From the NCBI GenBank assembly GCA_016868575.1, contig VGGL01000005.1:108-64107 (forward strand): a DNA stretch of 64,000 nucleotides. Reading direction: 5' to 3'. This DNA comes from Bacteroidota bacterium. GTDB lineage: Bacteria; Bacteroidota; Bacteroidia; Bacteroidales; FEN-979. This document shows, one piece after another, positions 6,558 through 34,837 of this stretch (its first letter is position 1; each line of letters opens with the position of its first letter). The notes under the pieces were generated by a model, which saw only the letters and a program-made list of their open reading frames with translations, was not told the DNA's origin and did not search any database. A program made the translations under genes and the position numbers.

Positions 6558-7739
6558 ATGAAATATCGGAAATTATATGCAGATATCCAGCCATACTTCC
6601 ATCATAAGAATGCGATCGTTGTGACTGGGATGCGTCAGGTTGGGAAAACAACATTATTGCGACAGATATTTGACTCCCTGGAGACGGATAGTAAACTTTG
6701 GTTTGATCTGGATAATCCACTTGATCAATTGATTTTCGAGCATACTGATTTCCGTTCAATCCATGCGAACCTGAAAAGGTTAACCAAAGGAGACCGGCTC
6801 TATGTATTCATTGATGAAATTCAGAACTATCCGAAGATTACAAGTGTCATCAAGTATTTGATTGATCATTTTGGCGTCAAGTTCTTTCTGACCGGTTCTT
6901 CATCATTTTATCTGAGAAATCTCTTCCCAGAATCGTTAAGCGGCCGAAAGTTCCTATTCCAATTATCGACTTTGAGTTTTAGTGAGTTATTGTATTTTCA
7001 TGACAGGATTACTTATGATGAATTGATCCATCATCCGCCATTACTATCTCTTTCTACAGCAGATCTTCATGCCTATCACTCGCTTGACAATGAATTTCGG
7101 GAGTTTCTTGAATATGGTGGATTTCCGGAAGTAGTCACAACCGAAAGTCCTGAAACAAAGAAGCTGATCCTTAAGAATATTTTTACCTCCTTTTTTGAAA
7201 AAGATATTCGAATACTGTCGGACTACAAGGATATGCGTGAATTGCGTGATTTGATTTTACTGCTTGTTCCCAAGGTCGGATCCCTGCTCGATATCACCCG
7301 GATCTCTTCGGAACTCGGTGTTCAACGAGGGAAGCTATATCATTATCTTGAGTTGTTACAAGGACTATTTCTGCTCCATTTGCTACCCAGATATTCAAAG
7401 GGAATTGATCGCTCTGTTGCCGGTGGGAAAAAAGTATATTTTACAGATCAGGGACTGTTAAACTATATCGGTAAGGTCAATGAATCCCAATTGCTTGAGA
7501 ATACGGTGATTAACCAATTAAAAGAATACGGCCGGGTCTCCTTTTTCAATTACAGGAATACAGCTGAAATAGATGCCATACTTGATGGAAAAATGGCTTT
7601 TGAGGTTAAGATGACAGGGACCGAATCAGACTTGACCAGGCTTGAAAAGGTCGCCAGGAAACTGGGCCTTACAGAACAATTTGTAATAAGTTTGAACTAC
7701 CGTAAAAATGAGTGGTTTCTCTTCCCACATTTTATCTGA
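6558..7739 (+). CDS. AAA+ ATPase with a C-terminal DUF4143 / PD-(D/E)xK-like domain
   Basis: Walker A VVTGMRQVGKTTLL and Walker B-like LYVFIDEIQ. The C-terminus carries AEIDAIL...AFEVKM (D...ExK). Confidence 0.75.
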   Translation: MKYRKLYADIQPYFHHKNAIVVTGMRQVGKTTLLRQIFDSLETDSKLWFDLDNPLDQLIFEHTDFRSIHANLKRLTKGDRLYVFIDEIQNYPKITSVIKYLIDHFGVKFFLTGSSSFYLRNLFPESLSGRKFLFQLSTLSFSELLYFHDRITYDELIHHPPLLSLSTADLHAYHSLDNEFREFLEYGGFPEVVTTESPETKKLILKNIFTSFFEKDIRILSDYKDMRELRDLILLLVPKVGSLLDITRISSELGVQRGKLYHYLELLQGLFLLHLLPRYSKGIDRSVAGGKKVYFTDQGLLNYIGKVNESQLLENTVINQLKEYGRVSFFNYRNTAEIDAILDGKMAFEVKMTGTESDLTRLEKVARKLGLTEQFVISLNYRKNEWFLFPHFI

Positions 7740-7804
7740 CGATGCCGTTAACCTTCCTGTTTTCATTGTCTTTTTTTCTACTTTTACGCCACTATTGAAG
7801 ATGT

Positions 7805-8515
7805 ATGGGTAAGCTATATGACCGGCTTGCGGAAGATGTTCGTTTTCAGGAGGGGTTGAAATCATGCATCAATTGTGGAACATGCACAGCGATCTGTCCT
7901 GCGGCGGAGTTTTATAACTATCAGCCCCGGAATATCGCTGTTATCCTTCAAAGCCGTGATGATGAACAGATAGAAACTTTGCTAAAAAGCGAATCCATCT
8001 GGTATTGTGGAGAATGCATGTCGTGCAAGACCCGGTGCCCGCGGGGAAATGCTCCGGGATTACTGATCACGGTGCTTCGATCGGTATCACAGGATCTCGG
8101 TTATTTCACAGAATCAGAAAAAGGAAGGCAGCAACTGGCCATCAAAAGAACGATAGGTGATTGGATCCTTAAACATGGTTACTGCCTGTATCCGTCTGGC
8201 ATTCTTCCGGATGCACATCCGGAACAAGGTCCCATCTGGGAATGGGAGTTCAGTCATATTGATGATGTGATGGACCGGCTTGGAGCGAACCTGAACAGAC
8301 CAGGTACAGGTGTTCTAAGAAGGATCCCGCAGGAATCGATTGATGAGATCAAAAAGATATTTGATGTGACGGGGGGTACAAAACGGTTTGAACTTATCGA
8401 GCAATTCTCAAGGGAAAAAGCTGAAGAGATGGGTATGGAACTCGATGAAACCAATGAGAACGAATACTTTAACTATATCTATACAACAGATAACGGTCAA
8501 CACCTGGCTCCATGA
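7805..8515 (+). CDS. HdrC-like 2x[4Fe-4S] ferredoxin-domain protein with a ~130-aa C-terminal extension
   Basis: CINCGTCTAICP and CGECMSCKTRCPRG (two CX2CX2CX3CP motifs). Its end overlaps the next gene by ATGA. Confidence 0.7.
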   Translation: MGKLYDRLAEDVRFQEGLKSCINCGTCTAICPAAEFYNYQPRNIAVILQSRDDEQIETLLKSESIWYCGECMSCKTRCPRGNAPGLLITVLRSVSQDLGYFTESEKGRQQLAIKRTIGDWILKHGYCLYPSGILPDAHPEQGPIWEWEFSHIDDVMDRLGANLNRPGTGVLRRIPQESIDEIKKIFDVTGGTKRFELIEQFSREKAEEMGMELDETNENEYFNYIYTTDNGQHLAP

Positions 8516-9591
8516 AGAAGGAAGGTAAAGAGTACATCTGGAAAGACTACCAGAAAGAAATCGCTGAAGACAAGTATTTTTACGTCAGGAGTTGTGTCCG
8601 GCAGAATTTTTTCCCCGGATCAGAATGGGCATTTCAAAAGATCCTTAGAGAAGAGTTGAAAAAGGATCTTTTCGAGAATGCTGCCCATACCTCATGTACA
8701 GGTATTGGATACCACACTGAAATAGTCCCGTTCGAAACCATGATGACTGTTGTAGCCAGACAATTTGCCCTGATGACGGAAGCAGGGTATGAGCACTTCG
8801 TTTCTTCCTGCATCACCTCCTTTGGCATCTATTCAGAGATCCTTGAAACCTGGGAGCATTTCCCCGAAACGGAAGCCAGGGCGCACCAGTACCTGAAAGA
8901 GGCCACCGGCAGGGACTTCATCAAACCGAAAAACCTGGCACATACCGGCGATATCATCTACAAATTCAGAAAAGAAATAGTTGCAAAGGGAAAGTACCGC
9001 CTGGTTCATCATCAAACCGGTGAACCATTGAAGATCGTCGAGCACATCGGTTGTCACTATTCCAAGATGTTTCCACACCGTGGGATTGGCGGCGCAGAGT
9101 ACCCCTATGTGCTGGTAGGGATGATTGAAGATTGGGGCGGCAAAGTTGTGGATTATCCTGAACGGAGACATTGTTGCGGATTTGGTTTCCGCCAATACAT
9201 TGTCCGGGCTAACCGGGGTTACTCCATTGCGTGTTCCCGCAAGAAGTTCGAATCGATGGAGCCTTACCATCCGGATGCCATTCTCACCAACTGCCCGGGT
9301 TGCCCCATGTTCCTTGATCGCTGGCAATATGCTATCAGCGAGATGGAAGGGAAAACATATGGTGAGAACGGACATGGGATTCCGGTGCTGACGTATGAGG
9401 AACTTGCCGGACTTGTGCTGGGTTATGATCCCTGGGATCTGGGTTTGCAGGTACACCAGGTTCCTGTTGAGCCTTTGCTTGATAAAATCGGCATCCCTTA
9501 CGATCCTTCGAAAAAATTCCTTGGAAAAGATGGCAGGGATCTGGGTCGCCCCGAAGCGCCTCATTTCCTCAAGTTCTACAAAGAGTCATGA
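8512..9591 (+). CDS. HdrB-like CCG-domain Fe-S protein
   Basis: The C-terminal CCG domain is intact: GCH-x39-CCGFGF-x38-CPGC. The N-terminal copy is degenerate (SCTG in place of CCG). Confidence 0.7.
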   Translation: MKKEGKEYIWKDYQKEIAEDKYFYVRSCVRQNFFPGSEWAFQKILREELKKDLFENAAHTSCTGIGYHTEIVPFETMMTVVARQFALMTEAGYEHFVSSCITSFGIYSEILETWEHFPETEARAHQYLKEATGRDFIKPKNLAHTGDIIYKFRKEIVAKGKYRLVHHQTGEPLKIVEHIGCHYSKMFPHRGIGGAEYPYVLVGMIEDWGGKVVDYPERRHCCGFGFRQYIVRANRGYSIACSRKKFESMEPYHPDAILTNCPGCPMFLDRWQYAISEMEGKTYGENGHGIPVLTYEELAGLVLGYDPWDLGLQVHQVPVEPLLDKIGIPYDPSKKFLGKDGRDLGRPEAPHFLKFYKES

Positions 9592-10601
9592 GACAGGTAG
9601 TGATCATTGGTGGCGGAGTTGCCGGGCTGGAAGCTGCCGGGTTCCTTGGAAAAATGGGACACCAGGTCGTATTGCTGGAAAAAGAAAAGGCTGTTGGCGG
9701 CCATGTGGGCAAATGGGACAGGCTCTTTCCAAACCGGCGTCAGGGATCGGAGGTAATGGATTTCATCCGGAAGAAAATGGATGAAAAAGTCTCGATAATC
9801 ACGGAAGCCGGGATCAAATCTATCGACACTTCTCCTGACGGCTACGCTGTTGTATTGACCAATGGAGAAGCGATCCGCGCGGATGCCATCCTGCTCGCCA
9901 CCGGATTTGAGTTATTTGATGCCCGGAAAAAAGAAGAATACGGCTATGGTATCTACGACAATGTGATCACATCTGCCGACCTGGAGCGGATATTCAGGGA
10001 AGAAGGAAAGATCACCACGGCTGATGGCCAGGCACCGCAGAAGGTTGCATTTGTCCACTGTGTAGGCTCCCGGGACGAGAAAGCGGGAAATGTTTACTGC
10101 TCCAAGGTTTGTTGTGTGACCGGTGTCAAGCAGGCCATTGAAGTGAAAGAGATGATGCCAGCTGCCAAAGTTTACAGTTTCTATATGGACATCAGGATGT
10201 TCGACCGGCATTTTGAAGAACTCTATATCGAGGCACAGCAACAAGGGATCACCTTTATCCGGGGACGTCTTTCAGAGGTCTACGAAGACCAGGGAAAAGT
10301 TCAGTGCAAAGTCGAAGATACCCTCACCGGCAAACCGATGAAGGTGACCGTCGACTTGCTGGTGCTTTTGGTTGGTTTCATGCCTTCTCCCGAAACAAAG
10401 CGCCTGGCTGGTATGCTGAAAATCAATATCGGTTCGGATGGTTTCGTGCTTCCAATCGACGGGCATATAAGTCAAAATGAGACCGGTGTTCCCGGTATTT
10501 TTCTTGCCGGCGCAGTCACAGGACCGAAATGTATTGCCACCACCCTCTCCGATGCCCGCTCTGCCGCCCTGCAGATCGATCAGTACCTGAAGACCAAGTA
10601 A
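9588..10601 (+). CDS. Short HdrA-like FAD/[4Fe-4S] flavoprotein
   Basis: Dinucleotide fold VVIIGGGVAGLEAAGFL. HdrA cluster signature CVGSRDEKAGNVYCSKVCC. At 337 aa it has no appended ferredoxin or MvhD domains. Confidence 0.75.
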   Translation: MRQVVIIGGGVAGLEAAGFLGKMGHQVVLLEKEKAVGGHVGKWDRLFPNRRQGSEVMDFIRKKMDEKVSIITEAGIKSIDTSPDGYAVVLTNGEAIRADAILLATGFELFDARKKEEYGYGIYDNVITSADLERIFREEGKITTADGQAPQKVAFVHCVGSRDEKAGNVYCSKVCCVTGVKQAIEVKEMMPAAKVYSFYMDIRMFDRHFEELYIEAQQQGITFIRGRLSEVYEDQGKVQCKVEDTLTGKPMKVTVDLLVLLVGFMPSPETKRLAGMLKINIGSDGFVLPIDGHISQNETGVPGIFLAGAVTGPKCIATTLSDARSAALQIDQYLKTK

Positions 10602-10611
10602 CCCGGGGGCT

Positions 10612-10962
10612 ATGAAGAAGGATAAGTGGGGATATGGCATCCATCCTGACCGGCAGATCGACCTGGACAACGCAAACCTGTCATTGCTGGAACTGGTGAG
10701 GCAGTCAGAACCATCTTACAACCTCTGCATCGCCTGTGGAAGCTGTGCCGCCACCTGTACGGCAGGAAATCTGACGACTATCAGTCTCCGCCGGATCAAT
10801 ATATATCTGCAACGCGGGATGATCAAGGAACTCCGGGAAGAGATCCGGCGATGCATGCTCTGTGGAAAGTGTTATCTGGCCTGCCCGAGAGGGGTAAACA
10901 CAAGACATGTCATCATCGCCATTCATGAGGCATTAAAAGCGACAGGGTATGAGGAATTATGA
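10612..10962 (+). CDS. Small HdrC-like 2x[4Fe-4S] ferredoxin
   Basis: CIACGSCAATC and CMLCGKCYLACPRG. It overlaps the next gene by 14 nt. Confidence 0.7.
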   Translation: MKKDKWGYGIHPDRQIDLDNANLSLLELVRQSEPSYNLCIACGSCAATCTAGNLTTISLRRINIYLQRGMIKELREEIRRCMLCGKCYLACPRGVNTRHVIIAIHEALKATGYEEL

Positions 10963-12793
10963 CCCATTCGTCCTTCCCTTCATGCTGGGGTTCCTGTTCC
11001 TGGTGGTTCTCATCATTTACAAGTTCGCCCAGTGGCTGATTCGCCTGAACATGCGCGAGAAGGTCCTTTTCCGGCATGGCATGCTGAGCCGGAAGTTTCT
11101 CCATGCCGGCAATGAGGTATTCATGGAAAGCCTGATTCACCGGAAGATGTTCAAAGCCAATCCTTTGCTGGGATATATGCACATGAGCCTCGCCTTTGGG
11201 TGGTTTCTGCTAATCGTCCTGGGAAATGTCGAATCCCGCCTCCATACCGGGGCACATCTCAACATGCCCTATTTTCCTATCTTCCTGAAGTTTTTTGTGA
11301 CTGAAAAAGAGACCATCCCGTTCTATGGCGGCTTTACCAACCTGATGGATTTTCTGCTGCTCATGGTTCTCTCCGGTGTATTTCTGGCGCTGATCAAGAG
11401 GATGACCTCCCGGATTTTCGGCATGCGCCGGACGACAAATCTGAAGGTCGGGGACAAGATCGCACTGATCACCCTATGGTTGATCTTTCCGCTCCGTCTT
11501 TTTGCCGAAAGCCTTACGGCAGCGCAACATCACAATGGAGGATTCATGACAGAAAATGTCGGGCAATTCCTGGCTGCTTTTCTGCCGACAGATCAGTTAT
11601 CCTATCCAGCCTGGTGGCTCTATTCCATCTCCCTTGGCGCATTCTTCGTTGCAGTCCCTTTTTCAAGGTATATGCACATCCCTGCGGAAATATTGCTGAT
11701 CTACCTCCGGCATTTTGGGATCCATTCCACCAAGGTCTATTCTTCTTTCTCGGAACTGGAGGTCTACTCCTGTTCACGATGCGGTGTTTGTATTGACAAA
11801 TGCCAGCTTCATACAGCGGATATACACTTCAATACGCCAACTTATTTTTTCCGCGCCATCCGGGAGAGATCGCTCTCTGGCGATTTGACCGATGCCTGTC
11901 TGTTGTGTGACCGGTGCACGGCCGCTTGCCCCGTGGAGATCAACACAACAGCCATCCGGATCGCAAAAAGGGCAACATTTTCAACTTCTTTTAAGTCTGA
12001 TTTTTCCTACCTTCCCGCCAACCATACCCGGCGTAAAGCTGACGTGGCCTACTTTGCCGGCTGCATGACACATCTTACACCGGCAATCAGAAAGGCGATG
12101 ATCGCCATCCTGGAACATGCAAAGGTCAAATACCACTTCATCGACGAGCAAGGGATCTGTTGCGGTCGGCCGCTGATGATGACCGGCAGGCTGGAAGAAG
12201 CCCAGCAACTGGTCCGGAAAAACGAGGCGCTGATCAAGGGCAGTGGAGCCAGGATATTGCTGCTGTCCTGTCCAATCTGCCTGAAAGCTTTCCGGGAAGA
12301 CTACCACCTCGATATCCGGATCATGCATCATTCGGAATATATCTGTGAGCTGATGGACCGGCAAATACTCCAAATTCCCGCCGGCACACAACTGTTTTCC
12401 TTCCATGATCCCTGTGAGTTGGGAAGGGGTTCGGGAATATTTGATCAACCCAGAAAGATTCTGTCTGAAGCCGGAAAACTGGTCAAATCTAAGTTTGAAA
12501 AAGAAAACTCTTTCTGCTGCGGAGGAAGTCTGGGCCATACTTCGTTATCACAGGCTCAACGGAATATAATCACGCAGGAAGTTGTTAACGAACTTACCAA
12601 AAACAACCCCGATTCCCTGGTTACCGCATGTCCGCTCTGTAAAAAAACATTCACCCGCTGGTCGGAGGTGCCGGTGAAGGATATTGCTGAGATTGTTGCC
12701 GAAGTAATTTCATTAGGCTCTACACAGTCAGACAGGGAACAAAATACAAACTCACTGGGAATAAAAGTACATGAAAAGCAAAAAAGGAAGTAA
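10949..12793 (+). CDS. Membrane-anchored Fe-S/CCG protein (polytopic N-terminal domain fused to an HdrD/DsrK-like module)
   Basis: About five hydrophobic spans in the first ~255 aa. These are followed by CSRCGVCIDKC and CLLCDRCTAACP, then two CCG domains (CCGRP...CPIC and CCGGS...CPLC). Confidence 0.75.
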   Translation: MRNYDPFVLPFMLGFLFLVVLIIYKFAQWLIRLNMREKVLFRHGMLSRKFLHAGNEVFMESLIHRKMFKANPLLGYMHMSLAFGWFLLIVLGNVESRLHTGAHLNMPYFPIFLKFFVTEKETIPFYGGFTNLMDFLLLMVLSGVFLALIKRMTSRIFGMRRTTNLKVGDKIALITLWLIFPLRLFAESLTAAQHHNGGFMTENVGQFLAAFLPTDQLSYPAWWLYSISLGAFFVAVPFSRYMHIPAEILLIYLRHFGIHSTKVYSSFSELEVYSCSRCGVCIDKCQLHTADIHFNTPTYFFRAIRERSLSGDLTDACLLCDRCTAACPVEINTTAIRIAKRATFSTSFKSDFSYLPANHTRRKADVAYFAGCMTHLTPAIRKAMIAILEHAKVKYHFIDEQGICCGRPLMMTGRLEEAQQLVRKNEALIKGSGARILLLSCPICLKAFREDYHLDIRIMHHSEYICELMDRQILQIPAGTQLFSFHDPCELGRGSGIFDQPRKILSEAGKLVKSKFEKENSFCCGGSLGHTSLSQAQRNIITQEVVNELTKNNPDSLVTACPLCKKTFTRWSEVPVKDIAEIVAEVISLGSTQSDREQNTNSLGIKVHEKQKRK

Positions 12794-12888
12794 TAGATCA
12801 AGTCCATTATTAGACATTATTGCTTTAATCTAAGGAGTTTATCTCGGTTTGTCTAATAGAAATCAAGTTCAACATCTGGTTTTCTTCG

Positions 12889-12896
12889 TATTTTTG
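12889..12896 (+). promoter_or_regulatory. -7 box (TAnnTTTG) upstream of the HEPN gene
   Basis: TATTTTTG lies 19 nt upstream of the ATG at 12915. Confidence 0.45.
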
Positions 12897-12914
12897 CATT
12901 AACTCAATTAACAT

Positions 12915-13325
12915 ATGGAAGAAAAAGAGAAGGAATATATTGATTATGAGAGAAGTATTAATCATTGGATCGAAAGTTCCGACAGAGATTTTCAAACAAT
13001 GAGTAATCTTTTTAACTCGAAGGATTATAGTTGGTCTCTTTTTTTGGGTCACCTTGTGATTGAGAAACTTCTCAAGGCAATAGTAGTCAAGGCAACCCGT
13101 CAATACCCCAAACCCATACATGACCTCAGCAGATTGGCCATTCTTGGTCAACTCAACTGTTCAAATGAACAACTTGATTTGCTCGATACAATTACCACAT
13201 TCAACATCAACACAAGATATGAGGATTACAAACTTGAGTTTTATCAACGTTGTACAAAAGACTTTGCTGAAACATGGATCAGCCATATAAAAGAACTCAG
13301 GAAATGGATAAAATCTCAACTATAA
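12915..13325 (+). CDS. HEPN-domain protein (putative toxin partner)
   Basis: IEKLLKAIVV...PKPIHDLSRLA...NINTRYEDY matches the HEPN helical-bundle pattern. It sits next to a nucleotidyltransferase gene. Confidence 0.7.
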   Translation: MEEKEKEYIDYERSINHWIESSDRDFQTMSNLFNSKDYSWSLFLGHLVIEKLLKAIVVKATRQYPKPIHDLSRLAILGQLNCSNEQLDLLDTITTFNINTRYEDYKLEFYQRCTKDFAETWISHIKELRKWIKSQL

Positions 13326-13618
13326 ACCTGCTGATTGAATACCTTAAAGCCGTTCCCAAGGAAAAATATCATTTATCCAGGGCGTTTCTTTTTGGATCTT
13401 ATGCCAGAGATAATCAGCATGAGGACAGTGATATTGATCTCGCCATTGTAATAAAGAATTTGAGAGATCCCTTTTCAGCTCAGCTTGAATTGATGAGGCT
13501 CAGACGTAAATTCGATCTTCGAATTGAACCCCATCCTTTTAGTGAAAGTGATTTTACTGCCCAAAATCCAGTTGTCTCTGAGATATTAAAATATGGCCAG
13601 GAGATTCCAATTGTTTGA
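13304..13618 (+). CDS. Minimal nucleotidyltransferase (MNT) domain protein (putative antitoxin partner)
   Basis: The pol-beta NTase motif FGSYARDNQHEDSDIDLAIV. The start is either 13304 (MDKIST, 22-nt overlap with the HEPN gene) or 13274. Confidence 0.7.
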   Translation: MDKISTINLLIEYLKAVPKEKYHLSRAFLFGSYARDNQHEDSDIDLAIVIKNLRDPFSAQLELMRLRRKFDLRIEPHPFSESDFTAQNPVVSEILKYGQEIPIV

Positions 13619-15638: not shown

Positions 15639-16835
15639 ATGGATAAGTTGTATCAATATTCCGCATCGAGAATAAATTCGGTAAATCTAACCCGGAAAAG
15701 ATATCTATGGGATAAGATCAATTGGAACAATCGTTTGATCGTGCTGACAGGAGCCAGGGGAACAGGAAAAACAACCATGCTCTTGCAATATATCAAAGAG
15801 AACCTCCATGGAAATTCCGGAGATGTGATTTACGTAAGCATGGACGATCTGTATTTCTCGAAAAACAGGATTGTTTATTTTGCCGATGATTTTGTAAAAC
15901 GGGGAGGAAAATATCTTTTTTTGGATGAAATCCATAAATACCGGAACTGGCCACAGGAGATCAAGAATATCTATGACTATTTTTCAGATTTGAAAGTTGT
16001 GATCACGGGTTCGGCAGCTTTGAATATCTACCAGGGTACTGCTGATCTCAGCAGGAGAGCGGTTCTCTACCATTTACATGGTCTTTCATTCAGAGAATTT
16101 ATAGGATTCAAATATAATAAACCGTTCCCGGTTCTACCACTCGAAGAAGTATTGCATCATCCGGATGATTACATTAAGGGAATCTTAAAGGAGTTAAAAC
16201 CAATAAAACTATTCGAGGAGTATATTCAGAAAGGATATTATCCATATTTTATAGAAGACGAATCCACCTATTTTGACCGACTGAAGCAGACGGTCAATCA
16301 TGTGCTTGAAGTCGACCTTCCTTCGGTCGAAAACATTGATTACAATTCAGTTCATCATCTCCGTGTCCTGCTATCTGTTATCTCAGAGATTGTCCCCTTC
16401 AAGCCAAACATCATCAAACTTAGCAAACAGCTTGGCATTAGCAGAGATACCCTGTTAAAGTATTTGAATCTCCTTGCCCGGGTAGACTTGCTCCTGCTGT
16501 TGCAATCAGAAACAAGGGGAATCAGCAGACTCAATAAACCGCAAAAAATTTACCTTAATAACCCCAATCTGATGTTTGCATTAAATGATTCGCTTGATAA
16601 TAAAGGATCTTTAAGGGAAACATTCCTGATGAATCAGTTAAAAGGAAATTATCAGGTTGCCTATGATGATAAAGGAGATTTTCGAGTCTCCAGCAATTAT
16701 ATTATAGAGGTCGGAGGAAAGAATAAAACGCGAAAACAAGTTTCCGGGATTGAAAATGCCTATATCGCCGCAGATAATATTGAATATGCTTTTCAGAAAA
16801 CAATTCCGCTATGGTTGTTTGGGTTTCTTTATTAA
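15639..16835 (+). CDS. AAA+ ATPase with a C-terminal DUF4143 / PD-(D/E)xK-like domain (divergent paralog of 6558..7739)
   Basis: Walker A VLTGARGTGKTTML and Walker B YLFLDEIHK. The C-terminus carries GDFRV...IIEVGGK. Confidence 0.75.
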   Translation: MDKLYQYSASRINSVNLTRKRYLWDKINWNNRLIVLTGARGTGKTTMLLQYIKENLHGNSGDVIYVSMDDLYFSKNRIVYFADDFVKRGGKYLFLDEIHKYRNWPQEIKNIYDYFSDLKVVITGSAALNIYQGTADLSRRAVLYHLHGLSFREFIGFKYNKPFPVLPLEEVLHHPDDYIKGILKELKPIKLFEEYIQKGYYPYFIEDESTYFDRLKQTVNHVLEVDLPSVENIDYNSVHHLRVLLSVISEIVPFKPNIIKLSKQLGISRDTLLKYLNLLARVDLLLLLQSETRGISRLNKPQKIYLNNPNLMFALNDSLDNKGSLRETFLMNQLKGNYQVAYDDKGDFRVSSNYIIEVGGKNKTRKQVSGIENAYIAADNIEYAFQKTIPLWLFGFLY

Positions 16836-25777: not shown

Positions 25778-27070
<1,293 letters not shown>

Positions 27071-27610
27071 TTACTCCTGTTTGTTTTCAGTCCCGGCTTC
27101 CGGAGCGACAGTCTCGGCTTTTGGAGTTTCTGCGGGGGCTCCAGCTTTAGGTTCATCCGCGTGTTTAACGGCAGTTGTCTTTTTCTTCGCAGTTCCGCGA
27201 CGACGGCGTGTTGCCTTTTCCTTTGCTTCGGGAGCAGCCTCCAGCATATTTATGTTGTAATCAACCAGTTCGATGATCGCCATGTCGGCGTTGTCACCGG
27301 CACGTTGTCCGATTTTCAGGATGCGGGTGTAACCGCCCGGACGATTTGCGATCTTCTGCGAAATCTCACGGAACAGTTCAGAAACTGCTTTCTTATCCTG
27401 CAGATAGGTAAAAACGATCCTCCGGTTGTGGGTGGAATCATTCTTGGCCCGGTTGATCAGGGGCTCTACATAAGGCCGCAGAACCTTTGCCTTGGCCAGG
27501 GTGGTAGTGATCCGTTTATGTATGATCAGCGAAGCTGCCATATTGGACAACATTGCCTGCCGGTGCTCTTTTTTCCGACCTAAATTGTTGACTTTATCTC
27601 CGTGTCTCAT
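27071..27610 (-). CDS. rplQ: 50S ribosomal protein L17 with an Ala/Lys/Glu/Pro-rich C-terminal tail
   Basis: [25 protein letters not shown]. It holds the last position of the alpha operon. Confidence 0.95.
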
Positions 27611-27616
27611 CGCTGT

Positions 27617-28609
27617 TTATTCCTTTTCCAGTTTATACTTCGATATATTCATTCCAAACTCCAGTCCTTTTGCCCGGACCAGTTCCTCGAGTTCTGTCAG
27701 TGACTTTTTTCCGAAATTCCTGAACTTCAACAGATCATTTTTATTATAGGCTACCAGGTCGCCAAGGGTGTCGACATCAGCAGCTTTCAGGCAGTTGAGG
27801 GCCCTTACGGAAAGGTTGAGGTCGATCAGTTTGGTCTTCAGCAGTTGTCTGACATGCAATGTATTCTCATCGAATTCGTCAGAAGCTTCCTTTTCTTCTG
27901 CTTCGAGTGTGATCTTTTCATCAGAGAACAGCATAAAGTGGTGGATCAGGATATGAGCCGCCTCTTTTAATGCACTCTTTGGGGTGATCGATCCGTCGGT
28001 GGCAATTTCCAGGATCAGTTTCTCATAGTCGGTTTTCTGCTCAACGCGGGTGTTCTCAATGGTATATTTCACATTCTTGATGGGGGTGTGAATGGAATCG
28101 ATAAAGATTTTCCCCGGTTGGGCATTGGCCACCTTGTTCTCTTCTGCAGGCACATATCCCCTTCCCTTGTTGATAGTGACCTCAATATTGACTCGCACCT
28201 TTTTCTCCAGGTGACAGATCAGCAGGTCAGGGTTCAATACCTGGAATACAGACAGGAACTTATTGATATCGCCTGCCTTGAATTCTTCCTGGTCACCTAT
28301 GACAATATTGACCTTTTCGGATTCCTCGGTATCCAATTGCCGTTTGAAGCGAATTTGCTTCAGGTTGAGAATGATCTCGGTGACGTCTTCGATCACTCCC
28401 TTGATGGTTGAGAACTCATGATCCACGCCATCAATCTTCACCGAAGTGATGGCATATCCTTCCAGGGAAGAGAGAAGGATCCTCCGTAAGGCATTTCCGA
28501 TGGTGATGCCGAAACCAGGTTCCAGCGGACGGAATTCGAACACTCCCCGGCTATCATCGGTTTCGATCATGACCACTTTTTCGGGCTTCTGAAATGCTAA
28601 TATTGCCAT
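27617..28609 (-). CDS. rpoA: DNA-directed RNA polymerase subunit alpha
   Basis: [14 protein letters not shown]...[17 protein letters not shown]. The start was moved to the ATG at 28609. Confidence 0.95.
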
Positions 28610-28640
28610 ATCATGAAAATTAATAGTGTCAAATATGCTT

Positions 28641-29246
28641 TTACTTGGAATACAATTCAACGATCAATTGTTCCCGGATGTTTTCAGGGATTTGGTCTCT
28701 GGATGGATAATTCATCATTTTCCCGCTCATCAGATCCTGGTCCCATTCCAACCAGGGATACTGGTTTGATCTTGAACTCAGGGCTACGGTGATCACTTCG
28801 AGGGATTTGGAGCGTTCCCGAACACCCACAATATCACCTGGGCGAAGTTCACAGGAAGGGATGTTAACCACTTTCCCGTTCACGGTGATGTGGCGATGGG
28901 AAACCAACTGGCGTGCAGCGGCCCGTGTAGGGGCAATCCCCAGGCGGAAGACCACATTATCCAGCCGGGCTTCGATGAGTTGCAGCAGCACCTCACCCGT
29001 TACGCCTTTCTTGCTGGAAGCTCTGTGGAAGATGTTCTTGAACTGGCGTTCCAGGATGCCGTATGTATACTTGGCTTTCTGCTTTTCCATGGATTGGGTG
29101 CCATATTCAGAGACTTTTGAGCGTCTTCTGGAGGTACCATGCATTCCGGGTGGATAGTTCTTTTTTTCAAAGTATTTATCGGGTCCATAGATCGGATCCT
29201 TGAACTTTCGGGCTATCTTTGATTTTGGTCCAATGTATCTTGCCAT
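28641..29246 (-). CDS. rpsD: 30S ribosomal protein S4
   Basis: [15 protein letters not shown]... Confidence 0.96.
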
Positions 29247-29282
29247 TTCGACGTTATTTTATTTTTTGTGATTCAGCAGTGA

Positions 29283-29672
29283 TTATACCCGGCGTCTTTT
29301 CGGTGGTCTGCAACCATTATGTGGCAACGGGGTGATGTCGACGATCTCCATCACCTCAATCCCGGCTGTATGGATGGTACGGATAGCCGATTCCCTCCCT
29401 GCTCCGGGTCCACGAACAAATACCTTTACTTTTCTCAGTCCCAGATCGTGTGCAACCTTTGCACAGTCGGCCGCGGCCATCTGAGCGGCATAAGGAGTGT
29501 TTTTCTTCGAACCCTTGAAACCCATTTTCCCGGCCGATGACCAGGAGATCACCTGTCCGGCACTGTTGGTAAGGGTTACGATGATGTTGTTAAATGAAGC
29601 GTTTACGTAAGCTCTGCCAATCGCATCAATTTTCACGACCCGCTTCCTGGCGCTCTTTTCCGATTTTGCCAT
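29283..29672 (-). CDS. rpsK: 30S ribosomal protein S11
   Basis: ...[18 protein letters not shown]... Confidence 0.96.
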
Positions 29673-29705
29673 TGTATGATATAAATATGATCGATAATTC
29701 AGTTT

Positions 29706-30086
29706 TTACCCTTTGGTTGCCTTTTTCTTGTTGGCAACGGTCTTTTTCCTCCCTTTTCTGGTCCGGGCATTGTTTTTTGTGCTTTGCCCCCGAACAGGAA
29801 GTCCAACCCGGTGACGAATGCCACGGTAACTTCCGATGTCCATCAGCCGTTTGATGTTCATTTGAACCTCCGACCGGAGCGCACCCTCAACCTTGAACTT
29901 GTCGTTGATGATGGTTCTGATCTTGTTCTGTTCGTCATCATTCCAATCCTGGACTTTCTTATTCAGGTCGATGCCCGCTTCCTTCAGGATCTTCTGGGCA
30001 GAACTCCTGCCAATGCCGAAAATATAAGTCAGACCTACTTCTCCCCTTTTCTGCTTGGGAAGGTCAATTCCTGCAATTCTTGCCAT
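29706..30086 (-). CDS. rpsM: 30S ribosomal protein S13
   Basis: [26 protein letters not shown]. Confidence 0.96.
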
Positions 30087-30110
30087 ATATATTGCCTTTT
30101 GATATTGTTC

Positions 30111-30227
30111 TTATCCTTGACGTTGTTTGTACTTGGGTTCTTTCTTGTTTATCACAAAGAGTTTACCCTTCCTCCTGACGATCTTGCAGTCGGCTGTTCT
30201 CTTCTTGATAGATGTACGGACTTTCAT
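30111..30227 (-). CDS. rpmJ: 50S ribosomal protein L36
   Basis: Not in the ORF track because it is under 60 aa. Hand translation gives [38 protein letters not shown], located between infA and rpsM. Confidence 0.9.
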
Positions 30228-30239
30228 GCGTTTTCTTTT

Positions 30240-30458
30240 TTATTGATATCTGAACGTAATTCTTCCTTTTGTCAAGTCATATGGCGACATCTCAATCCGA
30301 ACCTTGTCTCCGGGTAAGATTTTGATGTAATGCATCCTCATTTTCCCGGAGATATGGGCGATGATGACGTGGCCATTCTCGAGTTCAACCCGGAACATGG
30401 CATTTCCCAGTGATTCGATAACCACCCCATCTTGCTGGATTGAAGCTTGTTTTGACAT
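30240..30458 (-). CDS. infA: Translation initiation factor IF-1
   Basis: [30 protein letters not shown]. Confidence 0.96.
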
Positions 30459-30464
30459 TGATCC

Positions 30465-31250
30465 TTATATATTTGAAACCATTGTTTCTTCAATAAACCG
30501 GAAGGTTGAGAGCATTTCTGCCCGATCTTTCCGGACAACCACCGTCAGCTCAAAATGGGCTGACGGTTTTCCATCGGCAGTCCGGATCGTCCATCCATCC
30601 GAACCATGGGTGATGTTTCTTGTTCCCAGGTTGATCATGGGTTCAATGCAGAGCACCATTCCTTCGCGGAGTTTCATCCCGGTCCCCCGTTTCCCATAAT
30701 TGGGAATTTCCGGTTTCTCATGCAACTCCATTCCAAGCCCGTGACCAACAAGGTCCCTGACTACCGAATAACCTTTCGTTTCAACATAGCCTTGCACCGC
30801 CCGGCTGATATCTCCTACTCTTTTTCCGGCCAGTGCCGCTTCGATTCCTCTGAACAGAGAGGCCTTGGTATGATCCAGGAGGGCTTTGATATCAGGAGCA
30901 ACTTCACCCACTTCAAAAGTATAGGCTGAATCTCCATAATAGCCATTTTTCTTTGTTCCGCAATCGATCGAAACGATATCACCATTTAAAAGAACGCGTT
31001 CACCGGGTATGCCGTGAACCACTTCATCATTCACTGAGATGCACAGTGTTGCCGGATAACCCTGGTACCCTTTAAACCCGGGTACTGCTCCATGGTCCCT
31101 GATATAAGTCTCTGCGACTTGATCCAGGATACTTGTTTTCACCCCGGGCTTGATACACCTGGCTACTTCTGCCAGGGTTTTACTGACCAGGATGGCATTT
31201 TCCCTCAGGAATTCAATCTCTTGCTCGTTTTTTTCCAACGATCCAGCCAT
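30465..31250 (-). CDS. map: Type I methionine aminopeptidase
   Basis: ...VVHGIPG...DIVSIDCG...HGLGMELHE... Confidence 0.93.
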   Translation of the reverse strand: MAGSLEKNEQEIEFLRENAILVSKTLAEVARCIKPGVKTSILDQVAETYIRDHGAVPGFKGYQGYPATLCISVNDEVVHGIPGERVLLNGDIVSIDCGTKKNGYYGDSAYTFEVGEVAPDIKALLDHTKASLFRGIEAALAGKRVGDISRAVQGYVETKGYSVVRDLVGHGLGMELHEKPEIPNYGKRGTGMKLREGMVLCIEPMINLGTRNITHGSDGWTIRTADGKPSAHFELTVVVRKDRAEMLSTFRFIEETMVSNI

Positions 31251-31259
31251 GATCCGGGG

Positions 31260-32624
31260 TTATCCCGTCATACCCATACTCCTTCCCTTGATCCGCCCCG
31301 ACTTTGTCAATCCATCATAATGGCGCATCAGTAGATGGCTTTCGACCTGTTGCAGGGTGTCTAATACAACCCCAACAAGGATCAGCAAAGAAGTACCTCC
31401 ATAAAATTGAGCAAACTGGGTATTTACACCCACCAGCCTGACCAGTGCCGGCATGATGGCTACAAAACCCAGAAAGATTGATCCCGGCAAAACAATGCGC
31501 GACATCACGCTGTCAATGAACTCTGCCGTTTTTCGACCCGGCTTAACCCCGGGAATAAAGCCGCCATTTTTCTTCATATCCTCAGCCATCTGGTTGGGAT
31601 TGATGGTAATGGCGGTGTAGAAATAGGTAAACAAGATGATCAGTATAAAGAAAATAAAGTTATACCAAAAACTATTGATATCTGTGAAAGTACGGGCAAT
31701 ACCGCTCAGTGTTTGCGATTCTGCAAAACCGGCAATGGTGAGCGGCAGGAACATGATCGCCTGGGCAAAAATGATCGGCATCACGCCGGCAGTATTTACC
31801 TTGAGCGGGATATATTGCCGTACTCCGCCGTATTGCTTGTTTCCAACAATTCTCTTGGCGTATTGCACAGGGATCTTGCGGGTTCCCTGTACGAGCAGGA
31901 TCGTGATAATAATAACCACAACCAAAATGGCAAGTTCAACAACAAAAAACACCAGACCACCGCCTTTCTGCTCCATCCGGGAGGCCAGCTCTCCGAAGAG
32001 TGCAAATGGCAGCCGGGCAATGATACCGATCATGATGATCAGAGAAATACCATTCCCGATCCCTTTGTCGGTGATCCGTTCACCCAGCCACATAACGAAC
32101 ATCGAACCGGCAGTTAGGATGATGATCGAAGAGATACCGAAGAAGGAAAACACCGAATGCATCGTAACATTTGGATTGAACGGAGCGATGGCTTCGGCTG
32201 GGAGCTGGGATGCAAGATTGGCAATGTATGCGGGTGACTGGAATACCAGGATTATGACCGTCAGGTAGCGGGTGATTTGGTTGATCTTCTTCCGGCCACT
32301 CTCTCCTTCCTTCTGTAAACGCTGGAAGTAAGGTATGGCCATGGTGAGGAGCTGCACAACGATGGATGCCGAAATGTACGGCATGATCCCAAGGGCAAAG
32401 ATGGAGGCGTTGGCAAATGCACCGCCGCTGAACATGTTGAGCAGACCGAGCAAGCCACTTGATGACTGATTCTGCAGGCTGGCCAGCATCCCCGGGTCAA
32501 TGCCCGGAAGAACAACATAAGATCCTATCCGGTAGATCAGGATGATGCCCAATGTGTACATGATCCGCTTCCGAAGTTCTTCGATCTTGTAGATGTTCCT
32601 TAATGTCTGTATGAGTTTTTTCAT
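31260..32624 (-). CDS. secY: Preprotein translocase subunit SecY
   Basis: Ten-span profile, GIMPYISASIVVQLL, and its position after rplO. Confidence 0.96.
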   Translation of the reverse strand: MKKLIQTLRNIYKIEELRKRIMYTLGIILIYRIGSYVVLPGIDPGMLASLQNQSSSGLLGLLNMFSGGAFANASIFALGIMPYISASIVVQLLTMAIPYFQRLQKEGESGRKKINQITRYLTVIILVFQSPAYIANLASQLPAEAIAPFNPNVTMHSVFSFFGISSIIILTAGSMFVMWLGERITDKGIGNGISLIIMIGIIARLPFALFGELASRMEQKGGGLVFFVVELAILVVVIIITILLVQGTRKIPVQYAKRIVGNKQYGGVRQYIPLKVNTAGVMPIIFAQAIMFLPLTIAGFAESQTLSGIARTFTDINSFWYNFIFFILIILFTYFYTAITINPNQMAEDMKKNGGFIPGVKPGRKTAEFIDSVMSRIVLPGSIFLGFVAIMPALVRLVGVNTQFAQFYGGTSLLILVGVVLDTLQQVESHLLMRHYDGLTKSGRIKGRSMGMTG

Positions 32625-32658
32625 CCCGTTGCTGATTTTTCAGTTATAGAACAGGTCA

Positions 32659-33111
32659 TTAGGCTTTGATGATTTGGGCAGATCCGCCGGCTGCTTCAAT
32701 GGCTTTGAGTGCTGACTGGGAGAAAGCATGGGCTGTAACATCAACCTTGGCTTTCAGTTCTCCCCGACCCAGGATTTTTACCAGGTCCTTCTTACCAACC
32801 ACTCCGTGTTCATACAATGTCTCGGCATTAATCGTGGCAAGACCCTTTGCATCAACCAGTTTCTGTAGTACATCCAGGTTGATCCCTTTATATTCTTTCC
32901 GGGAGATATTGGTAAATCCGAATTTTGGGAGCCGCCGTGACAAAGGCATTTGTCCGCCTTCATGTCCAACCTTCTTGGTGTAACCGCTTCTTGACCTGGC
33001 TCCCTTATGCCCTCTGGCTGATGTTCTCCCCTTCCCGGAACCTTGTCCGCGGCCAACGCGTTTGCTCTTTTTAACAGCGCCTTTTGCGGGCTTCAAATTG
33101 CTTAAATCCAT
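32659..33111 (-). CDS. rplO: 50S ribosomal protein L15
   Basis: MDLSNLKPAKGAVKKSKRVGRGQGSGKG. Confidence 0.95.
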   Translation of the reverse strand: MDLSNLKPAKGAVKKSKRVGRGQGSGKGRTSARGHKGARSRSGYTKKVGHEGGQMPLSRRLPKFGFTNISRKEYKGINLDVLQKLVDAKGLATINAETLYEHGVVGKKDLVKILGRGELKAKVDVTAHAFSQSALKAIEAAGGSAQIIKA

Positions 33112-33150
33112 GATGTAAGTATATCTTTTTGGATTGGTAATTCAAATTCA

Positions 33151-33333
33151 TTATTCAACTTCTTCAACCCTGACCAGGTGATCCACTTTTCGGATCATTC
33201 CCAGGATCTGGGGTGATGGGTTAAGTTTAACGGAATGACCCAGCCTCCTGAGACCCAGGGCCAGCAAGGTGCGTTTCTGCCGCTCCGGTTTTCCGATCTG
33301 GCTTCTAACCTGTGTGATTTTCAATTTTTTCAT
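33151..33333 (-). CDS. rpmD: 50S ribosomal protein L30
   Basis: [28 protein letters not shown]. Confidence 0.93.
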
Positions 33334-33354
33334 CGAATGAAGTTTTGCTGGTAA

Positions 33355-33873
33355 TTATCCCTTAAATACTTTTTCCAGACTCACGCCCCGCAATTGGGAA
33401 ACAGTAAATGGATCCTTGAGTTGGAGCAGCGCATGGATGGTAGCTTTCACCACGCTGTGGGGGTTGGAGCTCCCCTTTGATTTGGCGAGCACGTCTTTCA
33501 CTCCCACGCTTTCCAATACTGCGCGCATGGCGCCTCCCGCGATAACTCCCGTTCCGGGTGCTGCAGGCTTGATATAAACCAGTGCACCGCTATATTTGCC
33601 GGTTGTATCATGCGGAATGGTACCTTTCAGTACGGGCACCTTGATCAGGTTCTTCTTGGCATCATCAATCCCTTTGGAGATGGCTGCAGTAACCTCTTTG
33701 GCCTTGCCAAGACCATAGCCCACCACACCGTTTTCATTGCCAACCACTACGATGGCAGAAAAACTGAAGGCACGTCCGCCTTTGGTTACCTTGGTTACGC
33801 GCTGGATGCTGACCAGCCGGTCTTTGAATTCGATTTCGCTCGATTTTACTCTTTTGATATCTACGTTTCCCAT
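33355..33873 (-). CDS. rpsE: 30S ribosomal protein S5
   Basis: ...[26 protein letters not shown]... Confidence 0.96.
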
Positions 33874-33883
33874 GATTGATGTT

Positions 33884-34246
33884 TTAGAATTTCAGTCCTC
33901 CTTCTCTGGCAGCTTCAGCCAAGGCTTTTACCCTGCCATGATATAAATAACCATTGCGGTCGAAGACCACCGATTGAATACCTGCCTGGGTTGCCCGTTC
34001 AGCAAGTAATTTTCCGACCAGCTTGGCCTGTTCGGTTTTGTTTGCTTTAACCGCCACAATTTCCTTGACCCTGGAGGAAGCGCTCGCCAGCGTTTTTCCG
34101 GCCAGGTCATCAATGACCTGGGCATAGATTTGCTGGTTACTCCTGAAAACGGTTAGCCGGGGTCTTTCCGGAGTGCCTGAAATGATCTTGCGAATCCTTT
34201 TCCTGATTCTGGTTCTTCTGTATTCTTTTCTCGATTTAATTGCCAT
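33884..34246 (-). CDS. rplR: 50S ribosomal protein L18
   Basis: ...[18 protein letters not shown]...[16 protein letters not shown]. Confidence 0.95.
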
Positions 34247-34282
34247 CCTGGTTGGTATTTAATGTTTAAGGATGATAGCTGC

Positions 34283-34837
34283 TTATGCAGATGCTGATTT
34301 ACCGGCTTTTTTCCTGATTTCTTCTCCGGCAAAACGGATCCCTTTCTGTTTGTAGGGTTCCGGTGGTCGCAGCGAACGAATCTTGGCTGCAACCTGTCCG
34401 ATCAGCTGCTTGTTGTTTGATTTGAGGGTGATCGTCGGGTTCTTTCCACGCTCGGTAACTGTTTCAACCTTCACTTCGGGAGGAAGTTCAAGGACGATAT
34501 TGTGTGAATAACCCAGAGAGAGCTCAAGCAGTTGTCCGTTTGCATTGGCTTTATACCCAACGCCTACAATTTCCTGGACGATGGTATATCCTTCCGAAAC
34601 CCCTTTCACCATGTTGGCCAGCAGGGCCCTGTAAAGGCCATGTATGGACCGGTCGGTCTTGTTCTCTGATTGCCGTTCAACGAACATTTGGTTCCCATCC
34701 ATGCGGATGATAATTCTGGGATCAACCTGCTGTTGCAGTTCGCCAAGTTTCCCTTTCACATGAACCAGGTTCTCAGCAGAGACCGTCACCTGTACACCAT
34801 CCGGGATCACGATCGGTAATTTTCCTATTCTTGACAT
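34283..34837 (-). CDS. rplF: 50S ribosomal protein L6
   Basis: MSRIGKLPIVIPDGVQVTV. Confidence 0.96.
   Translation of the reverse strand: MSRIGKLPIVIPDGVQVTVSAENLVHVKGKLGELQQQVDPRIIIRMDGNQMFVERQSENKTDRSIHGLYRALLANMVKGVSEGYTIVQEIVGVGYKANANGQLLELSLGYSHNIVLELPPEVKVETVTERGKNPTITLKSNNKQLIGQVAAKIRSLRPPEPYKQKGIRFAGEEIRKKAGKSASA

Follow-up and report, generated by a model that had tools for sequence, protein, structure and literature searches.

Heterodisulfide-reductase-like systems for sulfur oxidation (sHdr) are cytoplasmic and oxidize sulfane sulfur, and two arrangements have been described, type I with the order shdrC1B1AHC2B2 and type II with the order shdrC1B1AHB3-etfAB-emo. Each is associated with lbpA and sulfur transferases, and sHdr systems are reported as always being accompanied by the lipoate-binding protein LbpA and such transferases. 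For type II it has been proposed that electrons pass to menaquinone by way of EtfAB and EMO, and sHdrB3 is reported to bind only one non-cubane cluster; sHdrH is a soluble protein whose function the literature gives as unknown. Membrane modules of the HdrDE and DsrMK type couple a quinone-like pool to disulfide chemistry. EtfD of Mycobacterium smegmatis (9OJN) has five transmembrane helices, two cubanes, two CCG-bound clusters and one heme b held by His78 and His241, with Phe85 stacking on menaquinone. Catalytic Hdr proteins use ten cysteines for two non-cubane clusters; EtfD and the EMO of S. aciditrophicus (SaEMO) are one cysteine short each and act as wires. Here we analyze a five-gene cassette at 7805-12793 on the + strand of a 64-kb window, by which we mean the whole stretch of contig VGGL01000005.1 considered here. 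The cassette has the order C1-B1-A-Fd-M, that is, HdrC1-like, HdrB1-like and short HdrA-type proteins followed by a small ferredoxin (Fd) and a fused membrane subunit, M. It represents a new architecture among sHdr and Hdr-type systems, and we tentatively read it, at slightly less than even confidence, as an sHdr-like sulfur oxidoreductase coupled to menaquinone, with sulfite as its probable product. No description of this five-gene arrangement was found in full-text searching, and the papers examined on sHdr do not name Bacteroidota in that context.

The five open reading frames (ORFs), read directly from the sequence, lie at 7805-8515, 8512-9591, 9588-10601, 10612-10962 and 10949-12793 and are tightly packed, with ATGA overlaps at 8512-8515 and 9588-9591, a 10-nucleotide (nt) gap at 10602-10611 and a 14-nt overlap at 10949-10962. 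An initial annotation of the stretch had described five co-oriented operon genes with these overlaps and this gap; its coordinates were exact, and every ferredoxin, CCG, flavoprotein and HdrA motif that it listed was present. These are real genes and not chance ORFs, because each has hundreds of homologs, the gene order is recurrent and the cluster-binding cysteines are conserved. Pfam placed Fer4 families in genes 1 and 4, CCG in gene 2, both in gene 5 and a pyridine-nucleotide-disulfide-oxidoreductase fold in gene 3, and the top NCBIfam models for genes 1 to 3 were HdrC, HdrB and HdrA, in that order. None of the curated NCBIfam models reached its cut-off for any of the five proteins (bits against cut-off: HdrB 130/450, HdrA2 266/1100, qmoC 52/300, SdhE 38/500, GlpC 86/278, GlcF 37/333, TfrB 113/385 and DsrK 61/400), and no curated family covers them. 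The proteins thus did not fall into a known family with the same gene order, all models being far under their cut-offs, which supports the suggestion in the initial annotation of an as yet uncharacterized quinone-linked thiol/disulfide module. The whole complex is predicted to hold FAD, seven cubane [4Fe-4S] clusters (two in HdrC1, two in the ferredoxin, two in M and one in HdrA), three non-cubane sites of the classical kind, a fourth of variant type, and probably a single heme b. A scan of 7400-13400 for sigma-70 promoters and terminators gave counts no higher than those of shuffles, a sigma-70 scan being uninformative for Bacteroidota. The G+C content of the cassette was 0.49-0.51 as against 0.42-0.43 in the immediate flanks, still inside the range found across the window.

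The soluble subunits retain the ligands expected of an Hdr core, with the cluster-binding cysteines of the cassette invariant in 69-82 of 69-82 orthologs, depending on the subunit; the possibility that the key CCG or HdrA cysteines were not conserved was therefore not borne out. Gene 1 (7805..8515, +) encodes an HdrC1-like protein of 236 amino acids (aa) with two [4Fe-4S] motifs (C21xxC24xxC27xxxC31P and C68xxC71xxC74xxxC78P), a C-terminal extension and a conserved extra Cys127, all nine cysteines being kept in 69/69 orthologs. It matched Fer4_8 at E 6e-11 and HdrC models at 85 and 80 bits, far under their cut-offs. The HdrB1-like product of gene 2 (359 aa; 8512..9591, +) aligned over its full length with methanogen HdrB (E 5e-31; Pfam CCG E 1e-10) and carries a complete C-terminal site, C181-x39-C221C222-x38-C261xxC264, together with a variant three-cysteine N-terminal CCG site. 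In the latter, C28, S61-C62 and C100..S103 stand opposite C9, C41C42 and C78..C81 of HdrB, so that serine replaces HdrB C41 and C81. The site residues were invariant in 69/69 orthologs and in 25/25 sequences of a clade linked to cysteate synthase, considered below, and HdrB1 was the most conserved subunit, with 64-77% identity among orthologs.

Gene 3 (337 aa; 9588..10601, +) encodes a short HdrA-type FAD/[4Fe-4S] flavoprotein with the motifs GGGVAGLEAA and HCVGSRD..YCSKVCC, in which C158, C171, C175 and C176 were kept in 76/76 orthologs. It aligned end to end with the crystallized Hyphomicrobium sHdrA (6tjr) at E 5e-59, with a core identity of 32%. The core (residues 96-328) also matched methanogen HdrA, of which the N-terminal, inserted and C-terminal ferredoxin domains are missing here. 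An exhaustive search for HdrA relatives gave 5552 sequences, and in a neighbor-joining tree of the core region, drawn without support values, all of the short proteins (40/40, ~340 aa) fell into one clade, with 6tjr most basal and the Bacteroidales sequences nested inside. This full-length match and clade membership agree with the sHdr-like soluble CBA core proposed initially. Gene 4 (116 aa; 10612..10962, +) has two CxxCxxCxxxC motifs for two [4Fe-4S] clusters, with eight cysteines kept in 73/73 orthologs, and matched the HdrC model TIGR03290 at E 1e-8. Its length and motifs were as first annotated; the reading as a simple two-cluster ferredoxin was not sustained, since residues 2-114 are homologous to the ferredoxin core in the first 122 aa of Picosynechococcus HdrC2 (30.5% identical, E 3e-13). 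On this comparison gene 4 is a trimmed HdrC2 lacking the C-terminal extension, and neither a stand-alone ferredoxin nor sHdrH.

The fifth product, M (614 aa; 10949..12793, +), is a fusion of NarI-like cytochrome-b, HdrC-like and HdrB-like domains with the fold of EtfD, EMO and HdrDE. Its membrane part (residues 1-265; 10949..11743, +) has five transmembrane helices at residues 6-31, 72-100, 126-152, 167-194 and 214-238. It is followed by a region with two cubane [4Fe-4S] motifs (residues 266-345; 11744..11983, +; C275, C278, C281, C285 and C317, C320, C323, C327) and by one with two complete CCG motifs (residues 360-590; 12026..12718, +; C372, C404, C405, C441, C444 and C489, C523, C524, C561, C564). 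The AlphaFold2 model (pLDDT 84) showed five transmembrane helices by DSSP and then helical iron-sulfur and alpha/beta domains, and hydropathy and the distribution of lysine and arginine under the positive-inside rule indicated an N-out/C-in topology. Pfam matched Fer4_8 (E 4e-7) and CCG (E 2e-24, over two stretches). Model, hydropathy and motifs thus agree with the description given at the outset of about five membrane spans, two ferredoxin motifs and two CCG domains, and the modeled fold upholds a quinone-facing fused HdrD-like anchor. The ligands of M were kept in 82/82 orthologs, and all ten Hdr-type cysteines in 82/82 of these and in 34/34 sequences of the linked clade.

In a Foldseek search with the M model the sole full-length match was M. 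smegmatis EtfD (9OJN, E 6e-19, TMq 0.68), followed by LutA and then HdrB, and the profile match between M and 9ojn had an E of 6e-29. Residues H64, H78, G84, W85 and H243 of M are invariant, and H78/G84/W85 align with H78/G84/F85 of EtfD. H78 and H243 lie at the cytoplasmic ends of the second and fifth helices and correspond to EtfD His78/His241; they are the candidate ligands of one cytoplasm-proximal heme b. The conserved histidines of the membrane part are H64, in a cytoplasmic loop, H78 and H243; there is no conserved distal pair, and M is therefore probably mono-heme like the M. smegmatis EtfD (MsEtfD), not di- or tri-heme like NarI or SaEMO. The HMM scan proposed in the initial annotation recovered the CCG and Fer4 families but no NarI family in the isolated membrane domain, even at E up to 1, so that kinship to NarI and EtfD rests on fold and motif alignment. 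As modeled, M would most precisely be described as an EtfD/EMO-fold protein, probably mono-heme, in which the Hdr-type ten-cysteine ligation is kept. It also aligned weakly with a 727-aa EMO-like protein encoded beside EtfAB genes in locus L002 (relatives being given L numbers where needed), at E 4e-18 over the soluble and 4e-5 over the membrane part. That genome, which carries the cassette, has in addition to the EMO-like protein EtfAB and an acyl-CoA dehydrogenase (L002 807-2990 and 11977-15542), so that M and a canonical EMO-type protein coexist there as paralogs.

M has thousands of homologs, annotated simply as '(Fe-S)-binding protein', and a scan of one genome per species gave at least 595 stretches with its relatives. 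The best 80 of these at least 595 stretches are nearly all from Bacteroidales, including Prolixibacteraceae, Draconibacterium, Mariniphaga, Lentimicrobium, Rikenellaceae and the cultured Gaoshiqia hydrogeniformans. A survey of neighborhoods, as called for initially, found the order C1-B1-A-Fd-M complete in 75/84 loci, the others ending at contig edges, and more distant short-HdrA representatives (39-50% identity; L091-L094) lay in the same five-gene cassette. The commonest neighbors of stand-alone cassettes were a HisKA_3 kinase with a LuxR regulator, a lipoprotein, an ABC ATPase, DUF4159 and PurL. There were a few cassettes with insertions between HdrB1 and HdrA. In L007 (7989-8552) and L071 (8078-8626) a cupin of ~185 aa of the cysteine-dioxygenase type (PF05995, E 2e-10) lies there, the two copies being 53% identical; L036 (2269-2607) has an insertion of ~0.9 kb holding a 112-aa ORF, and L072 (2033-4582) one of ~3 kb with two opposite-strand genes, one of them membrane-bound O-acyltransferase-like by eye.

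The strongest functional clue among the relatives is a link to cysteate synthase, an enzyme which reportedly forms the sulfonolipid precursor cysteate, using phosphoserine and sulfite. In L091 and L095 a cysteate synthase gene (TIGR03844, 460 and 454 bits as against a cut-off of 325) follows M, in L095 with an FNT channel between the two and a SulP permease next. For the reverse test, 80 metagenomic loci with close relatives of these two cysteate synthases were collected. M was directly upstream in 32 of the 57 loci with at least 2 kb of upstream sequence, and where at least 5.2 kb was available A-Fd-M was found in 29/44 and the full five genes in 24/44. The gap between M and cysteate synthase was below 70 nt in 30 of 34 linked cases. 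A MarR (MarR/OhrR-like) regulator often precedes the cassette in these operons, and a SulP or nitroreductase-like gene often follows; there was no recurrent TusA, DsrE, LbpA or cysteate acyltransferase. All 34 M proteins from linked loci fell into one clade, sister to an 84-leaf stand-alone clade that holds the M of the window, and the cofactor ligands of M and B1 were identical in the two clades, which makes the same chemistry plausible in both. The PurL proteins of linked loci were 56-61% identical to those of named Bacteroidales loci, consistent with a place of the linked clade in Bacteroidota, the domains encoded in the flanks not being diagnostic of taxonomy. PALP genes near L024, L027 and L046 and in L002 were considered as further cysteate synthases and rejected as TrpB-like. 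The initial annotation had called the substrate not obvious; this holds for the window itself, which offers no clue, and no longer for its relatives, which do, through cysteate synthase and, on one contig, through a set of genes around LbpA.

On that contig (L003/L004; L003 628-12614) the cassette is followed after 34 nt by a GcvH-like LbpA and then by DUF169, TauE, LipS1 (263 bits as against a cut-off of 230), a LipT-like reductase, lipoate ligase and a LipS2-like gene, which together make up the accessory set of sHdr. The bin that holds this contig is labeled 'Euryarchaeota HGW-1'; HdrA groups within Bacteroidales, and for LbpA the nearest proteins come from Altiarchaeota and Aerophobetes, mixed affinities that point to misbinning or horizontal transfer; a simply misbinned Bacteroidales contig is countered by the affinities of the LbpA. 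The closest relatives of this LbpA were not found beside the cassette, but beside long-HdrA HdrABC sets or CCG proteins. GcvH-like genes stand by HdrC/HdrB and long HdrA (649-917 aa) or CCG proteins in L085 (10001-17941), L086 (10001-14951) and L087 (5273-10420), often with lipoate-protein ligase, in Altiarchaeota, Aerophobetes and other anaerobes, which suggests that lipoyl carriers are tied to Hdr complexes beyond sulfur oxidizers. A 446-aa HdrB-related protein is encoded near GcvH-like, hemerythrin-domain and thioredoxin genes, with no other Hdr gene, on plasmid pACF1 of Acidithiobacillus ferrooxidans (L089 787-4490). A GCV_H match in L071 was discarded as LbpA, being 8 kb away and 34% identical and probably an ordinary GcvH.

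These patterns may be accommodated by a model in which the five products form one membrane-bound complex, with the short HdrA placed between two iron-sulfur arms. The first arm would run from HdrC1, with two cubanes, to HdrB1, with one classical and one variant three-cysteine non-cubane site, and the second from the small HdrC2-type ferredoxin to M. HdrA would bridge the arms, as the structure of HdrABC, the homodimer of sHdrA and the sHdrAA'C1B1C2B2 complex that has been proposed suggest by analogy. As HdrA would thus join the two arms, electrons from an HdrB-type non-cubane active site could reach menaquinone; within M the path would lead over the two non-cubane clusters and the two cubanes, and probably over a single heme b, to a menaquinone site like that of EtfD. 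A single complex would then do what sHdrB3, EtfAB and EMO are proposed to do together in type II sHdr. Less confidently, the substrate may be thiol-bound or sulfane sulfur, oxidized probably to sulfite. Sulfite formation is favored because the only genetically characterized system with short HdrA, HdrB1 and HdrC1 has that proposed role, and because in a sister clade, whose cofactor ligands are identical, the cassette shares an operon with cysteate synthase. The LbpA set in L003/L004, the cupin in L007/L071 and an SQR-like gene in Picosynechococcus were also counted in favor of a link to sulfur. Where the genes are linked, cysteate synthase would consume the sulfite; the stand-alone copy in the window might deliver its sulfite to a cysteate synthase encoded at a distance, or the sulfite might leave the cell. 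Where sulfide is abundant and oxygen absent, such a complex could supply sulfite without assimilatory sulfate reduction, the menaquinol being re-oxidized by the respiratory chain. That the cassette is, beyond this, a lipoate-independent, menaquinone-dependent oxidase turning sulfide or sulfane sulfur into sulfite for cysteate synthase and sulfonolipids in anaerobic Bacteroidales, including host-associated Rikenellaceae, is possible but rather doubtful. Cysteate synthase has been named as the first step of sulfonolipid synthesis, in papers that do so without mention of sulfite, and sulfonolipids have been connected to host inflammation (PMC11525784).

Several observations weigh against sulfite formation. 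Cysteate synthase was not adjacent in the window or in any of the 71 testable stand-alone loci, and clustering of neighbors around 82 stand-alone cassettes gave no family present in more than 12 loci. Synteny at carAB and lysine-fermentation genes unites the linked loci, which therefore represent one broad lineage, not 34 independent events. LbpA and, as far as annotated neighbors go, sulfur transferases are missing near nearly all cassettes, and sHdrH is missing as well, although sHdr reportedly always has LbpA. Five linked loci read MarR-A-Fd-M-cysteate synthase without C1 or B1, which an sHdr-style model does not explain. In such operons A-Fd-M may be self-sufficient, or C1 and B1 may be encoded elsewhere; B1 would then not be the essential catalytic site, or would be supplied from elsewhere. 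Reduced operons of the form MarR-HdrA-Fd-M-(FNT)-cysteate synthase-(SulP), with no C1/B1 upstream, were seen in L095 (7882-15390), L098, L099, L103, L111 and L158. The last difficulty is energetic. The sulfite/sulfide couple lies at about -116 mV and the sulfite/S0 couple at about -40 mV. Menaquinone is placed at -74 mV in the literature. The S0/sulfite couple is thus not clearly below menaquinone, and the oxidation would be near equilibrium and need removal of the product.

The main rival is the reverse reaction, in which the complex would be a menaquinol-oxidizing disulfide, trisulfide or sulfite reductase, with M as a fused HdrED or DsrMK; we consider this unlikely, if worth serious attention. 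Electrons would pass from menaquinol through heme b to the ten-cysteine site of M, with HdrA-C1-B1 as a second site or a confurcating input, and in the linked operons the complex would be a second sulfite-consuming or -detoxifying enzyme beside cysteate synthase. It is attractive in that M keeps ten Hdr-type cysteines like catalytic HdrB and HdrD, unlike the wires EtfD and EMO, and in that the A-Fd-M modules without C1/B1 point to catalysis in M; the weak matches of M to DsrK, TmcB, HmcF and TfrB models and the MarR/OhrR-like regulator and SulP permease of linked operons are likewise in keeping with it. However, no DsrC, DsrAB or known disulfide carrier was found in the window or among recurrent neighbors, the one conserved histidine pair does not allow a di-heme redox loop as in NarI, DsrM and HdrE, sulfite reduction by menaquinol is uphill, and the nearest characterized C1-B1-A relatives work oxidatively.

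A second alternative, which we regard as improbable, is that the cassette is a substrate-agnostic electron-transfer or bifurcating/confurcating hub, an HdrA:menaquinone oxidoreductase in which the FAD of HdrA would exchange electrons with a diffusible partner encoded elsewhere (ferredoxin, an NAD(P)H-linked enzyme or a lipoyl protein) and HdrB1 would be no more than a relay or a sink of high potential. Bifurcation in methanogen HdrABC takes place at HdrA, EtfD and EMO use the same membrane fold purely as a flavoprotein-to-quinone wire, GcvH-like lipoyl carriers stand beside other Hdr complexes, and the highly variable genomic context is as expected of a general module. This would nevertheless leave the tight operon link to cysteate synthase unexplained; the short HdrA lacks the ferredoxin-binding domains of bifurcating HdrA, and HdrB1, as the most conserved subunit with its classical site intact, argues for catalysis. 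Very improbable, finally, is a non-sulfur dehydrogenase anchor of the GlcF/GlpC/LutA/LdhH/SdhE type, whose CCG domains would pass electrons from an organic-acid dehydrogenase to quinone: M does match LdhH, GlpC, GlcF and TfrB models weakly and has LutA as its second-best fold match, but all such model matches are far under their cut-offs, the flavoprotein is of HdrA type with no GlcD-, GlpA- or LutB-type catalytic subunit in the cassette, and the gene order fits Hdr and sHdr and not those dehydrogenases.

The surroundings in the window were in large part housekeeping. Upstream of the cassette are a PKD/CUB/BACON surface protein, an M48 peptidase and an AAA_14/DUF4143 ATPase, and downstream a HEPN/nucleotidyltransferase pair, a LytTR protein and a methyltransferase; the rest comprises peptidase S9, Sir2, enolase, EF-G, UvrD, UvrA and aldehyde dehydrogenase. 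The cassette is bracketed by AAA_14/DUF4143 ATPases (6558-7739 and 15639-16835) and the overlapping HEPN/nucleotidyltransferase pair (12915-13618). There were no LbpA, lipoate-assembly, Etf or TauE genes in the 64-kb window by tblastn, no Apr, Qmo, DsrC, DsrAB or CoM/CoB biosynthesis genes in its annotation, and no TusA, DsrE or rhodanese among its annotated genes or the recurrent neighbors, no search aimed at TusA/DsrE having been made. With the window otherwise housekeeping and tblastn negative for LbpA and Etf, the view that no LbpA, DsrE/TusA, Etf, hydrogenase or Qmo/Apr gene lies nearby stood. The EF-G was 70-74% identical to proteins all named as Bacteroidales or Bacteroidota, and the Bacteroidota context therefore holds, in a fairly deep lineage. 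Elsewhere in the window a 1274-aa ORF (55149-58973) had no Pfam match at E up to 1e-5, and the minus strand over 26000-42000 showed an AT skew of -0.19 to -0.27 across short ORFs up to EF-G (42195-44303). This run probably consists of ribosomal-protein operons, EF-G and enolase being the genes checked.

So far sHdr has been known as lithotrophic sulfur-oxidation machinery dependent on lipoate-binding proteins, and EtfD/EMO anchors as acceptors for ETF; the cassette joins both. If it does couple oxidation of sulfur or thiols to menaquinone, it would be a third architectural type of sHdr system and would indicate that the EtfD/EMO fold can retain a catalytic ten-cysteine Hdr site. Through the operon link with cysteate synthase, it would also be a candidate supplier of the sulfite used to make sulfonolipids where conditions are anoxic and sulfidic. 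On the more doubtful reading that its role is biosynthetic, it would be a route of 'assimilatory sulfur oxidation' and explain the origin of sulfite in strict anaerobes that live on sulfide. Its carriers include the cultured Gaoshiqia hydrogeniformans and metagenome-assembled genomes assigned to Draconibacterium and Mariniphaga, so that the idea is open to genetic and biochemical study.

Compared with type I sHdr of Hyphomicrobium denitrificans, the cassette, whose genes overlap, likewise has C1-B1-A ahead of functions of C2 and B2 type, a short HdrA, matching 6tjr over its whole length, for FAD and a single [4Fe-4S] cluster, and a pair of B-type subunits, of which one has a variant site and the other two classical non-cubane sites, C1 and B1 being likened by order. 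It differs in that sHdrH is absent, the sole gene between A and M being the HdrC2-core ferredoxin, in that C2 is cut to 116 aa and in that the soluble B2 is replaced by a five-helix, 614-aa fusion with a heme-b domain. The lbpA and lipoate-assembly genes are absent from the window and lie beside the cassette only in L003/L004 of ~85 loci, and the hosts are fermentative or anaerobic Bacteroidales, whereas those of type I are lithotrophs. With type II it has in common the C1-B1-A core, a fused C2-B2-like polypeptide and an EMO-type membrane iron-sulfur/heme protein directed toward menaquinone. One protein, M, stands for the roles of both B3 and EMO, and it is membrane-bound with ligands for two non-cubane clusters, whereas sHdrB3 is soluble and has one. 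EtfAB is absent from the cluster and was found near the cassette only in L002/L008, which are one genome, on the opposite strand and with the acyl-CoA dehydrogenase. A cyanobacterial relative is the uncharacterized cluster on a plasmid of Picosynechococcus sp. PCC 7003, in which C1, B1 and A are 44%, 44% and 49% identical, B1 has the same variant 'HTSC...CxTS' N-terminal site and C2 directly follows A without sHdrH; its C2 is of full length (203 aa) and its B2 a soluble 290-aa HdrB with no membrane domain. In this cluster (L088 8242-13982, NZ_CP016476.1) C1-B1-A-C2-B2 is followed by an SQR-like flavoprotein, with no LbpA annotated within 9 kb.

As to the membrane subunit, M resembles EtfD (9OJN) and the S. 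aciditrophicus EMO in combining five transmembrane helices, a two-cubane domain and a non-cubane domain in one chain, in keeping the heme-ligand His78 and a histidine after the fifth helix, and in having an aromatic residue at the menaquinone-stacking position. Identity is about 15-21%, the partners are HdrA, HdrB1, HdrC1 and the ferredoxin instead of EtfAB, the disordered C-terminal ETF-docking tail of EtfD is missing, and all ten Hdr-type cysteines are present, whereas EtfD has a linear [3Fe-4S] cluster (its C42 equivalent being replaced) and SaEMO a [4Fe-5S] cluster. A membrane cytochrome b with two HdrD-type cubanes and a ten-cysteine site is shared with HdrDE of Methanosarcina and with DsrMK/HmeCD of sulfate reducers, but M is a single fused chain with one conserved histidine pair in place of two hemes, is combined with HdrA-C1-B1, and has no CoM/CoB or DsrC/DsrAB context in the window or among recurrent neighbors. 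Like QmoABC, whose qmoC model genes 1 and 4 matched, the cassette ties an HdrA-type flavoprotein to the quinone pool through a subunit with fused HdrC-like and HdrE-like parts. Qmo has two HdrA paralogs, no HdrB/CCG subunit and a link to AprAB, whereas the cassette has one HdrA, an HdrB and no Apr. The cassette is accordingly a new architectural variant of sHdr/Hdr-type systems that lies outside sHdr of type I and of type II, EtfD/EMO, HdrDE/DsrMK and Qmo as these have been defined.

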